Source: Escherichia coli (GTDB lineage: Bacteria; Pseudomonadota; Gammaproteobacteria; Enterobacterales; Enterobacteriaceae). From it: a stretch of DNA of 23,614 nt. Positions 3,316 through 23,614 of the stretch are shown here, one piece after another. Made by a program: the position numbers and the translations under genes. Positions within the stretch are counted from its first letter, which is position 1, and every line of letters begins with the position of its first letter. The notes below the pieces were generated by a model. That model saw nothing but the letters and a program-made list of their open reading frames with translations, was not told the DNA's origin and searched no databases. The DNA lies in assembly GCF_003334315.1 (NCBI RefSeq), contig NZ_QOWR01000066.1; one strand, given 5' to 3'.

Positions 3316-4758
3316 TCAGCTAAACAACATCGCGATTTTGCCGAGAGCATAACCTATCACCAGCACCGTTAAACTGATTTTGATAATGCTGGTAATGCTC
3401 TGTGGTTTTTCACCCTCATCATTTTTTTCTTCATGATTTTCAGGTGTTGGCTCATCGACATCTTCATCCTCCGGCTCGAGTTTCACTTTCGTCAAAAGCA
3501 TCCGGGTGACAATGGCCTCTAATTCTCCGCCTTCCAGCCTTGTATTAAGACGGGCCAGCATCTCTTGTTTCGGAAACGCTTCAAGTACTACCTGTTCCGC
3601 TACCCGATACAAATCCAGGAACGGTGAATCTTGCTCTGTCTCGCTACCGACTCTCGATTTCCACCACGCCCATGCTTTGCGCTTGAAGAATAACGACTCA
3701 ATAAACGATTGACCTAACGGCGATAATTTTCCGCTATGTAAAATCTCCGCCCATAACAGCCGCGTCCGGGCGCTCTCACCAGGAACATATTTCAGCGGTT
3801 GACCTTGCGCATCTACCATGCTCCGCGCTTCGATAACCATCACTAATAACGCGAAATAATCCGGGCAATGACGCTTGCTCCACTGCAACAACAAATTATC
3901 AGCTTGTGTAGATGGGTAACTTTCCCAGTACGCGCAGAGATCGGCAAGCAGGCTTTCCCCCTCGCCGCAGTACAAACGTTGTGCACACAAGTAATACCGG
4001 GCATCTTCGCTTTCTGGTTCTTCCGTTTGCCACTGTTGAGCGACAGGAATGAGTTCCGCCATACCTGTTTGCACCGAGCTGTACCAGCGCAACAGTTTGC
4101 GATGTAACTTTGCATCATCAGGAATTAACCACGGACCTTCCATCGCCAAAAACGCAGTGACATAGTCAGGATGGTAACGGCAGCAACGTTCCAGCGCGAA
4201 GTAATACTCAACAGTCTGGTTCTGCAACGCAATGGGATATTCCAGAAGGCTAAGGAAATCGAAACAATCACCAGCCTGAATGGCCTCAAGAAAAGCCTCC
4301 CTTTCTTCCTCATCCATTCCTTCGCTGTCATTAAATGAATGCCAGTTCAAACGCTCTGCCAGCAAAGAAGCACAATTTAATGAAAGATATCGCGCTTCTA
4401 TGGCGATTGCACACAGCGGCCAGCGTAATTGATCGACATCCTCCATGTTCCAGGTATTTAATTGCTGAATAAATTTCTGCCAGGCGGAAGGCTGAAAACG
4501 ATCACTTTCTGAATCCAGTAATGTCCTGAATGCACGTAGTATTTCATGTTCAGCGGCAGCATCTTTTTCTTCATCATCTGCTTCCTCGACAGGATTTACC
4601 GCCAGTCGCAGGGCCTCTTCATAGGCCTGGCGTAATGCTTTAAACCCTTGCGGATCGGTTTCGGGATGACACAACGGTAAGCGAGCAAGATAAGCCTGGC
4701 GGATAATGTCTATTTGCGTCGTGCTTTCAATTTCGAGGATTTGCCAACATGTTTTCAT
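3316..4758 (-). CDS. djlC: J-domain (DnaJ-like) C-terminally membrane-anchored protein DjlC, putative HscC co-chaperone
   Basis: 480-aa ORF. N-terminus [50 protein letters not shown] aligns to J-domain helices II/III with HPE in place of HPD. C-terminus ...[26 protein letters not shown] is a hydrophobic tail anchor. Its start overlaps the ybeU stop (ATGA). Confidence 0.85.
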
Positions 4759-5462
4759 AGGTCGCTCACATCCTTAAGCGTTACCGGGCATTCAGACTGG
4801 ACAGTTAATGGCTGCCAGGGAAGCGTGGCATAGAAACGATCGCTTCCCGCTGCCAGCTCTTCGAACATACGACTCCCGGCGCTATCGTATTTGTACAGGG
4901 TTAGCGCCTCGCGTAGCGAAGTGTTGTCTTCGCACTGAGAAGATTGCCAGTAGAGACGTCCTAACGAATAGGCGGAAAAATAGTGCATCCAGCTGTGATA
5001 GTAATGGTGAGCTCGTACATAGACGCGCGATTGCAGCCATAAACTCTCTTCTTCCGTCAGCCACTTGTTGAGCACACCGACCCGTGACAGAAACCCCATT
5101 CGAACATAATCCCAGGCTTTGATTCCCCCTTCCCCACAGCACATAGCGGTTTGGGCAACGAATTGGGTATAAATCAACCCTCTCTCCGAGCCACCAGCAA
5201 TTAATGCTTTCCACTCTTCAGGGGAAGAGCGATGCCATGTCAGATATAAGCCAGCTAAATCATTGGCATGACCATCATCAGTCATCTGATAAATAGTCTG
5301 AATTAAATCATCACGATTATTTATTCCCCAGGATGATGAGAGCTCGAATTCTTTTATCCCAGTATACATTTTTGGCGAGTCATGCGCGGGTTTGCAACCC
5401 TGATTAAGTATTTCCATGGGCGCAGAAAGCGCAAAAAGAAGATATTGTTCTTCCTTATTCAT
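4755..5462 (-). CDS. ybeU: DUF1266-like protein YbeU (function unknown), first gene of a ybeU-djlC operon
   Basis: 235-aa ORF, a clear paralog of the ybeR product at 7552..8259 (shared blocks ...[20 protein letters not shown]...). AAGGGA Shine-Dalgarno upstream; stop overlaps the djlC start. Confidence 0.85.
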
Positions 5463-5563: not shown

Positions 5564-6118
5564 ATGAATAAAAAATTAATGTATATATTCGCAATTTTTA
5601 TAGTTGCAGCAATTACCTGTATTAGCCAACCCAAGAAAACGACGTTGCGTGATAAAGCCATGGTGAATTATGCCTTTGATTATTTAAGCTCACCGGGCAG
5701 TCTTCCATTCACCACGGCAGCCACGGAGCTTTCCGCGATTCATGGTCACTCAACGTCGCAATATCGCCTTGGAGAATTTTATCTTCATGGTAGCGACGGT
5801 AAACCACTGGATTATACACAGGCGAGATACTGGTATGAGCAATCAGCGGAACAGGAAAATCCACGCGCGCAAAGTAAACTGGGGTGGATCTACCTCAAAG
5901 GTCTGGGGGTCAAACCCGACACCCGTAAAGCAATTCTCTGGTATAAGGAAGCAGCTGAACAAGGGTATGCTCATGCTCAATATACTTTAGGTTTGATCTA
6001 CAGAAATGGCTCAGGTATTAATGTTAACCATTATGAATCTCAAAAATGGTTAAAACTGGCCGCCAAACAACATTACAAAAATGCGGAAAGATTACTTGCC
6101 GGGCTTCCCGCACATTAA
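5564..6118 (+). CDS. ybeT: Sel1-repeat protein YbeT with N-terminal hydrophobic signal/anchor
   Basis: 184-aa ORF. N-terminus [22 protein letters not shown] is hydrophobic. Repeated Sel1-like units are visible ([50 protein letters not shown]...). Transcribed divergently from ybeU. Confidence 0.85.
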
Positions 6119-6127
6119 CGTCGACTG

Positions 6128-7555
6128 TCACCCGAACAGATGGAGTATTTTCCCTATCAAACCAGCAAAGATAAAAATATAGAAAATAATTTTAATGATG
6201 CCCAGACAGCCTGGCCCACCATCGTCAACGGGCATTGGCTGCGGTTGCGGCTCCGGTTCAACAGTTTGCTTCTCGGTAAAATTCGCCGCCTGAATTAATA
6301 ATCGACGAATAATTAATGCTTCCAGTGGACAACGATTTTCTGCATCAAGGCGGCTCACAATCGGCATTAATGATTCTTCTGTAGGTTGGCAGGCCTGCAC
6401 TAATTGTTTGGCAACTAGATATAATGGCCATAAGGTATGTTCTGTATCACGCGTGAGTGAGATCCGCGGCTTACGTCCTTTGTGCAAAACCATCTCGACC
6501 AGTGAACGCCCCAGCGCAGAGAGTTTTTCATCGCTGAGTATTTCGTATAAATGAAAACGCGTACGGGCGCTGTCGCCGGGGACATAAAGTAGCGGTTTTC
6601 CCTGATCGTTAACCAGATCACGCGCTTCAATCATCATCACCAGTAATGGGTAATAATCGACCCGATGCTGACGGCATCATTGCAACATTAAAGCATCCGC
6701 CTGGGTGGAGGGATACTCGCGCCAGTAGTCACAAAGTTCTGCCAACAGGCTTTCGCCTTCTCCACAATAGACGCGTTGCGCGTATTCATAATAAGGCGCA
6801 TCTTCATTATCAGGTTCAGTTTCCCGCCATGACTGGGCGTAATCCAGAAGTTCGGGGATATCCAGGCGACCTGCGCTATACCAGCGGAGTAAATTTCTGT
6901 GCAGTTTTGCATCATCGGGGATAATCACTGCGCGATGTTGCGCTAAATACAATGTCAGCCATTGTGGATGCGATGACCAAATCCGAGCGAACATTTGGTA
7001 AAAATCGATGGTGTCATTTTGCACGGCAACGGGCAGATGCAGAATGGTCTGGAAGTTAAAAACATTCCCCTTCGCAATGGCATATAAAAAGGATTCCAGT
7101 TCTTCTTCGTCTATTTCCCCGGTATTTTCCTCCTGTAACCACCGCAATCTTTCTGCTAATAACACCACGCACTCGAAGGATAAATGGGCAGTGTTCATGG
7201 CGATTGTGCACAGCGACCAGCGTAATTCATCAATCTCCTCCATCGAGCAATAATTTAATTGCTGAATGAATCGCTGCCAGGCGGAGGGCAGAAAACGTTC
7301 ACTATCAGAGGCAAGTAACGCACGAAAGGCGAGCAGAATTTCATGTTCTGCTACCTCATATTCTTCTGGTTGCCAAACAGATTTAGCAGGCGACTGCGCA
7401 ATCCGTAGCGCCTCCTCATACGCCTGACGAAGTTGTTTAAAACCCTGCGGATCGGTTTCTGGATGAAAGGACGGTAACAGCGCCAGATAAGCGCGGCGGA
7501 TAATATCGACGTCAGTCGTTTCCTCTATATCGAGGATCTTCCAGCAATTTTTCAT
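6128..7555 (-). pseudogene. djlB: djlB, J-domain membrane protein paralogous to DjlC, interrupted by a single in-frame TGA
   Basis: ORFs 6677..7555 (292 aa, [39 protein letters not shown]...) and 6128..6640 (170 aa) are in the same frame, separated only by TGA at 6677-6679 (minus strand). Alignment with DjlC (…[27 protein letters not shown]…) against DjlB (…[26 protein letters not shown]…) places the stop where DjlC has Trp (TGG). Confidence 0.8.
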
Positions 7556-22327: not shown

Positions 22328-22591
22328 ATGAAAACCAAACTTAACGAACTGCTTGAATTCCCTACTCCTTTTACTTACAAAGTTATGGGGCAGGCGTTAC
22401 CTGAGCTGGTTGATCAGGTGGTTGAAGTGGTACAGCGCCATGCGCCAGGTGACTACACCCCAACGGTAAAACCAAGCAGCAAAGGCAACTACCACTCGGT
22501 ATCTATCACTATCAACGCCACTCATATCGAGCAGGTTGAAACACTGTATGAAGAACTGGGCAAAATCGATATTGTCCGCATGGTTCTGTAA
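22328..22591 (+). CDS. ybeD: UPF0250-family small protein YbeD
   Basis: 87-aa [24 protein letters not shown]... in the conserved position upstream of lipB. Confidence 0.85.
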
Positions 22592-22691: not shown

Positions 22692-23333
22692 TTGTATCAG
22701 GATAAAATTCTTGTCCGCCAGCTCGGTCTTCAGCCTTACGAGCCAATCTCCCAGGCTATGCATGAATTCACCGATACCCGCGATGATAGTACCCTTGATG
22801 AAATCTGGCTGGTCGAGCACTATCCGGTATTCACCCAAGGTCAGGCAGGAAAAGCGGAGCACATTTTAATGCCGGGTGATATTCCGGTGATCCAGAGCGA
22901 TCGCGGTGGGCAGGTGACTTATCACGGGCCGGGGCAACAGGTGATGTATGTGTTGCTTAACCTGAAACGCCGTAAACTCGGTGTGCGTGAACTGGTGACC
23001 TTGCTTGAGCAAACAGTGGTGAATACCCTGGCTGAACTGGGTATAGAAGCGCATCCTCGGGCTGACGCGCCAGGTGTCTATGTTGGGGAAAAGAAAATTT
23101 GCTCACTGGGTTTACGTATTCGACGCGGTTGTTCATTCCACGGTCTGGCATTAAACGTCAATATGGATCTTTCACCATTTTTACGTATTAATCCTTGTGG
23201 GTATGCCGGAATGGAAATGGCTAAAATATCACAATGGAAACCCGAAGCGACGACTAATAATATTGCTCCACGTTTACTGGAAAATATTTTAGCGCTACTA
23301 AACAATCCGGACTTCGAATATATTACCGCTTAA
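22692..23333 (+). CDS. lipB: Octanoyl-[ACP]:protein N-octanoyltransferase LipB
   Basis: 213-aa ORF with TTG start, [21 protein letters not shown].... Matches recalled LipB N-terminus and length. Confidence 0.85.
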
Positions 23334-23410
23334 TTCCATACATCAATGGCCCAATTTACACTGGGTCATTACTCATAATATCTGCTAATGCTTTACATCT
23401 CCTTCGCGTT

Positions 23411-23614
23411 GGTGATGCTGCCAACTTACTGATTTAGTGTATGATGGTGTTTTTGAGGTGCTCCAGTGGCTTCTGTTTCTATCAGCTGTCCCTCCTGTTC
23501 AGCTACTGACGGGGTGGTGCGTAACGGCAAAAGCACCGCCGGACATCAGCGCTATCTCTGCTCTCACTGCCGTAAAACATGGCAACTGCAGTTCACTTAC
23601 ACCGCTTCTCAACC
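23411..23614 (+). mobile_element. IS1 insertion sequence, left inverted repeat and 5' portion; continues past the window end
   Basis: GGTGATGCTGCCAACTTACTGATTTAGTGTATGATGGTGTTTTTGAGGTGCTCCAGTG... is the canonical IS1 terminal inverted repeat and leader. Confidence 0.9.
23466..23614 (+). CDS. insA: IS1 InsA (transposition repressor / transposase N-terminal part), partial
   Basis: From GTG at 23466 the frame encodes [48 protein letters not shown], the InsA zinc-finger N-terminus. Confidence 0.85.

Follow-up and report, generated by a model that had tools for sequence, protein, structure and literature searches.

The window, that is, the whole stretch of 23,614 nucleotides of Escherichia coli DNA that was analyzed (contig NZ_QOWR01000066.1), ends with the lipoate synthesis gene lipB, a short intergenic spacer and the beginning of an insertion sequence. 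The features located at this end were the following:

22328-22591, + strand: ybeD, identified by an NCBIfam equivalog model
22692-23333, + strand: lipB, lipoyl(octanoyl) transferase, intact, an ORF of 213 aa identified by the NCBIfam LipB equivalog NF010922
23334-23410, + strand: retained part of the lipB-ybeF spacer, the first 77 of 258 bp, with the 3' end TTCGCGTT
23345-23370, + strand: imperfect hairpin with a 9-bp stem just past the lipB stop, from the RNA fold
23411-23433, + strand: left inverted repeat (IRL) of IS1, 23 bp, GGTGATGCTGCCAACTTACTGAT, exact match
23418-23445, + strand: sigma-70-like promoter match (CTGCCA, 16 nt, TATGAT), from a consensus scan
23466-23614, + strand: 5' part of insA, the first 49 codons with a GTG start, cut by the window end

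The LipB protein scored 367.8 bits against NF010922 (E = 1e-110; curated cutoff 235), and the annotation of matching genomes also gave the name lipB to this gene. It is transcribed towards the IS1. The RNA fold of 23325-23415 displayed -19.6 kcal/mol (z = -2.9). However, the hairpin within it has no U tract and is therefore not a canonical intrinsic terminator. Neither the terminator scan nor the RNA fold detected an intrinsic terminator between lipB and IS1, thus transcription from lipB reading through into IS1 is plausible. A rise in IS1 activity due to upstream transcription has been reported (PMC12428005). No RNA families were detected in the whole window by comparison with Rfam.

The insertion sequence was identified by several features. 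The preliminary description had placed its left repeat at 23411, with insA reading outward on the plus strand, and this was confirmed both by the exact match of all 23 bp and by a match of the 49 InsA residues to the IS1/IS1595 zinc-binding domain NF050000 (42.8 bits, E = 5.5e-11; cutoff 28). The full-length IS1 transposase model scored below its cutoff because the window end cuts the insA ORF. As is characteristic of the IS1 family, insA starts about 55 bp inside the left repeat. The sigma-70-like match overlaps the IRL, corresponds to 4319-4346 in strain HS30-1 (L001) and is located where we assume the promoter of IS1 itself to be. Its assignment as the IS1 promoter also rests on the literature (PMC12428005). 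The 204 bases from 23411 to 23614 were identical to the first 204 bases of the complete 768-bp IS1 in matching genomes, which excludes a chance resemblance. The window end corresponds to the leftmost 204 bp of an ordinary IS1 (768 bp) of the IS1A type.

A complete IS1 generates a target duplication of 8-9 bp, and its insB' is reached by a -1 frameshift at an A6C site. The IS1 of HS30-1 occupies 4312-5079 (768 bp), with an exact right repeat and TTAAAAAACTC present; PGAP notes a 'programmed frameshift' for it. In the matching genomes insA/insB' are annotated as whole under the RefSeq label 'IS1-like element IS1A family transposase'. The IS1 copies of HS30-1, CP53 (L002) and L005 were identical in 768 of 768 bases, and an independent IS1 inserted nearby in L003 differed from them at four sites. 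The relatives of the window harbored roughly 25-40 or more IS1 matches per genome.

In the reference strain K-12 MG1655 the gene order is lipB, 258 bp, ybeF (954 nt, encoding a LysR-type regulator), 208 bp and lipA, all on one strand. The position of ybeF between lipB and lipA, which the preliminary description had stated, was thus verified, and its distance of 77 bp between lipB and IS1 also agreed with the lipB stop at 23333 and the spacer at 23334-23410. The K-12 YbeF contains an N-terminal HTH_1 domain (residues 31-89, E = 2.5e-14) and a C-terminal LysR_substrate domain (residues 116-316, E = 1.9e-16), the combination of helix-turn-helix and substrate-binding domains that marks a LysR-type regulator. 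The retained spacer of the window was identical to the first 77 bp past lipB in CP53, which keeps the full spacer. The reference reads CGCGTT and then TGTATATT, and the window has IS1 in place of TGTATATT.

The junction was compared across 5426 complete E. coli genomes, using 60-bp queries centered on the junctions, so that neither of the 30-bp halves scores alone. With a 515-bp query spanning the junction, 85 complete genomes gave matches covering 80% or more of the query, a number in which several arrangements are mixed. The exact left junction, lipB+77 to IS1, was found by the 60-bp query in 39 of the 5426 genomes. In every one of these 39 genomes the opposite end of IS1 abuts ybeF from nucleotide 126 onward. 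A target-site duplication was absent in all 39, as TTCGCGTT lies to the left and ACATAAAG to the right of the element. In HS30-1, for example, the left flank of IS1 reads ...CTTCGCGTT (longer: ...CTCCTTCGCGTT) and the right flank reads ACATAAAGGGATCG (longer: ACATAAAGGGATCGTTAATG...), the latter being ybeF from nucleotide 126. RefSeq calls this ybeF remnant a pseudogene 'missing N-terminus'.

A second form of the locus was represented by CP53, where an identical IS1 with the same right flank is preceded by ...GTATATGTACATAAAG. Here ACATAAAG is present on both sides and ybeF is split. The duplication has 8 bp; it becomes 9 bp (ACATAAAGG) when the initial G of the left repeat is counted as flank. 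The left junction of CP53, which represents a simple insertion within ybeF, was found in 17 related genomes. The right junction was found in 55 genomes, namely these 17 and 38 of the 39 genomes with the deletion form. The ybeF::IS1 allele in either form was carried by 56 of the 5426 complete genomes, globally dispersed isolates from humans, livestock and wildlife; for strain 14EC001, which has the simple insertion, the literature gives the sequence type ST793. The HS30-1 sequence equals that of CP53 minus 4312-4625, i.e., 314 bp abutting the left repeat. The lost 314 bp comprise 181 bp of the lipB-ybeF spacer and nucleotides 1-133 of ybeF, including the left copy of the duplication. The junction of the deletion is the outer edge of the IRL, between 23410 and 23411 in the window.

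Some variants of the right side were observed. In the 39th genome, FACU 2024 (L006, NZ_CP147009.1, about 5760-5775), the right junction carries a microdeletion of 35 bp, which takes the whole right repeat and lies between ACATAAA in IS1 and ACATAAA in the ybeF flank. This loss would immobilize the IS1 copy, and it could also be a sequencing error. In L005 (NZ_CP104618.1, 27101-27102) and eight other genomes one A is missing at the IS1/ybeF boundary. These nine genomes with the deletion form, some of which are among the closest relatives of the window, read CATTACC followed by CATAAAGG instead of ACATAAAGG, which is probably a sublineage marker. The sequence CATAAAGGG is a variant of the right-flank sequence ACATAAAGGGATCG.

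The window displayed only two mismatches in 23,537 bp to AHM9C68I, a genome with the deletion form, and it was identical to CP53 over the 4.3 kb available. At its other end, bases 1-77 are the terminal part of an IS150 in reverse orientation, inserted in gltL (encoding the ATPase of a glutamate/aspartate ABC transporter), and gltL follows from base 78. None of the 39 relatives with the same left junction has IS150 in gltL, and their alignments all begin at base 78 of the window. The strain of the window therefore differs from these 39 complete genomes. The window is probably a whole short-read contig bounded by IS150 and IS1, which is why only one IS1 end is visible and why the downstream structure has to be deduced, strongly, from relatives. 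In the preliminary description an extension across the right end of IS1 and its target duplication had been proposed; followed through these relatives, the right end was located within ybeF and no 8-9 bp duplication accompanied it.

An identical IS150::gltL junction was found in 42 genomes, mainly E. coli B (REL606, BL21 and ATCC 11303) and a few isolates such as EC24.26, in backgrounds 97.6-99.6% identical to the window. This distribution suggests either a site-specific hot spot of IS150 or transfer of the allele. An assignment of the window to E. coli B was rejected: REL606 is 97.6-98.7% identical, lacks about 2.4 kb and has an intact ybeF. The djlB gene (encoding a J-domain co-chaperone), at 6128-7555 on the minus strand, contains an in-frame stop at codon 293, and the annotation of the matching genome AHM9C68I lists it as a pseudogene.

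From the 39 near-identical genomes we infer that the genome of the window itself carries the same structure, and a single IS1 linking lipB+77 and ybeF nucleotide 126 is very likely. The position lipB+77 would most likely be the endpoint of a 314-bp deletion adjacent to IS1 rather than the target of an insertion. The simple ybeF insertion, whose duplication is perfect, must be the primary event. The arrangement with the window's left junction derives from it, since both share the right junction, the IS1 sequence and the flanking haplotype. In a first step, IS1 would have entered ybeF after nucleotide 133 (codons 42-45, in the HTH domain), duplicating ACATAAAG. In a second step, the 314 bp beside the left end of IS1 would have been lost, bringing the left repeat to TTCGCGTT, which is presumably the IS1 target of the deletion event. 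The loss could be achieved in one step if InsAB' performed an intramolecular replicative transposition into the nearby TTCGCGTT: IS1 would stay in the chromosome and the intervening DNA would depart as a circle. This mechanism, presumably mediated by the transposase, together with the structure forms a reading that we consider rather likely.

Adjacent deletions are textbook products of intramolecular replicative transposition, which start at the terminus of the insertion sequence, keep the element and lose the duplication. The lack of a duplication is what a secondary deletion is expected to leave, and it does not speak against the identity of IS1. Here too, the loss begins exactly at the IS terminus, with the element and its other junction unchanged. 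Documented cases of deletions with an exact start at an IS terminus and no duplication include those of IS1/Tn9 (PMC9330008; PMC11708052).

These results bear on several claims of the preliminary description. Its suggestion that ybeF may be disrupted was borne out, as the 5' end of the gene is truncated in all 39 genomes with the same junction. Its placement of the IS1 insertion itself 77 bp downstream of lipB is probably incorrect, because a duplication is lacking and the right end matches the simple ybeF insertion of 17 genomes. It had also been anticipated that a rearrangement junction might replace a simple insertion, and this holds in a mild form, a 314-bp adjacent deletion. Its proposal of altered lipA expression found no evidence, the lipA coding sequence and the 208-bp spacer upstream of it being intact in the relatives.

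A two-step route to the same product is possible but unlikely. First, TTCGCGTT would have received a second IS1 oriented like the resident one; RecA-dependent recombination between the two direct copies would then have excised the 314 bp between them along with one IS1. The product would be indistinguishable from that of an adjacent deletion, and recombination between insertion sequences is a recognized cause of missing duplications (PMC11708052). Moreover, TTCGCGTT is usable as an IS1 target, as indicated by a tandem IS1-TTCGCGTT-IS1 in strain 2017.04.03CC. However, this route takes two events instead of one, and its intermediate junction (right repeat, TTCGCGTT, TGTATATT) was present in none of the 5426 complete genomes; the search returned chance partial matches only, and as a control it recovered the expected 37-nt partial match from the genome with the tandem IS1. 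The absence of the intermediate therefore weakly favors the one-step adjacent deletion without proving it.

The tandem in 2017.04.03CC (L007, NZ_AP025205.2, 5031-6574) consists of two complete IS1 copies separated by exactly TTCGCGTT, and the same 8 bp are repeated to the left of the first copy. It follows from this repeat that the second IS1 took as its target the 8 bp directly next to the left repeat of the copy already present and duplicated them. Alternatively, the tandem may be an assembly artefact.

It is very improbable that in the genome of the window a larger rearrangement, for example an inversion or a large deletion between distant IS1 copies, has its breakpoint at this IS1 and has unlinked lipB from ybeF and lipA. 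The contig does end within a multi-copy repeat, and IS150 in gltL gives the strain at least one insertion sequence that its sequenced relatives lack, but none of the 39 relatives is rearranged at this IS1 copy. The gene lipA is required for aerobic growth without lipoate, a requirement that places no constraint on its linkage to lipB.

A simple insertion of IS1 at lipB+77 that duplicated 8-9 bp and left ybeF intact beyond it is hardly credible: the window by itself, ending 204 bp into IS1, is compatible with it, independent simple insertions exist in the AT-rich spacer of other strains (L003, L011) and the tandem in L007 makes an independent insertion at TTCGCGTT with an 8-bp duplication conceivable, but ybeF is truncated on the far side in 39 of 39 genomes with the same junction, the right junction that it requires occurs in 0 of 5426 genomes and the window is only 2 SNPs in 23.5 kb away from a genome with the deletion form. 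We retain the adjacent deletion as the preferred reading of the locus.

The deletion takes the ribosome-binding site and the start codon of ybeF, residues 1-42 including the start of the HTH domain with its first helix, and the upstream sequence as far as lipB+77, which includes the promoter region. The remnant in the genomes with the deletion form encodes residues 43-317 without internal stops and has no start codon. Because the start codon, the ribosome-binding site, the upstream region and the start of the HTH domain are missing, ybeF would be a dead remnant and the regulator function is presumably lost, judging from the sequence. A truncated YbeF product driven by read-through is conceivable. 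The deleted spacer contains weak promoter-like consensus matches at 4293-4321 and 4452-4480 of CP53; these were rejected as a mapped ybeF promoter, since they are weak consensus matches only. Both lipoate synthesis genes, lipB and lipA, appear unaffected.

Other insertions were found in the same interval. Two genomes carry a simple IS1 at lipB+23, within the hairpin that follows lipB (L003, 4258-5025), with the duplication GGCCCAATT. A different IS1 variant is inserted 47 bp upstream of the ybeF start in L011 (reverse complement, about 2017-2784), also as a simple insertion, with the duplication AGATTATTG. A contiguous interval from lipB to the 5' end of ybeF was missing in 80 of the 5426 genomes, among which 39 have the deletion form; in about 40 other genomes the interval is interrupted in one way or another. 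IS1 prefers AT-rich targets, and the insertions in the lipB-ybeF spacer, with a GC content of 36% compared with 50% for the whole window, fit this preference. The interval was hit independently by IS1 at least three times, in different E. coli backgrounds, and in addition by the secondary deletion, which might be read as a sign that the loss of ybeF was selected rather than neutral. We regard this reading as unsupported and selection as improbable. If selection did act, strains could naturally acquire altered motility through such IS1 events via lrhA/FlhDC, much as in the well-known case of IS insertions upstream of flhDC.

To our knowledge, an effect on lrhA and FlhDC is the only published phenotype of a ybeF deletion. 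In E. coli BW25113 the deletion lowered the expression of lrhA and raised that of the FlhDC regulon, and the study mapped no direct binding site (PMC9068703). The strains of the lineage without YbeF (56 of 5426 complete genomes) are potential natural knockouts, usable for testing the proposed links of the regulator to lrhA/flhDC and to citrate metabolism. The arrangement itself is already known, being present and annotated in public genomes, and represents routine behavior of IS1 at the gene of a poorly characterized regulator. The primary IS1 target lies 306 bp further on in the reference, inside ybeF, and the visible junction is secondary. An IS end at the edge of a contig should thus not be taken as the insertion site.

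Compared with the ybeF knockout of BW25113, the function of YbeF would likewise be lost here, as deduced from the sequence. In contrast to that knockout, the present allele is a natural 5' truncation with IS1 upstream. The element of the window agrees with the IS1A isoform of IS1 from E. coli and Shigella in the left repeat and the zinc-finger N-terminus of insA, and the copies of its relatives share the length of 768 bp, the right repeat and insA/insB' with the A6C frameshift site. The element itself showed no differences from IS1A; the copy in the relatives differs in having no flanking direct repeats and one flank deleted. Compared with the adjacent deletions known to be mediated by insertion sequences (the classical cases of IS1 in the gal region and Tn9, and also IS903, IS26 and IS150), the deletion described here is very short (314 bp), is found in natural isolates instead of under laboratory selection, and has the transposase as its presumed agent. 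It shares with them the exact start at the IS terminus, the conservation of the other junction and the absence of a duplication, and the parental insertion was likewise found in relatives.
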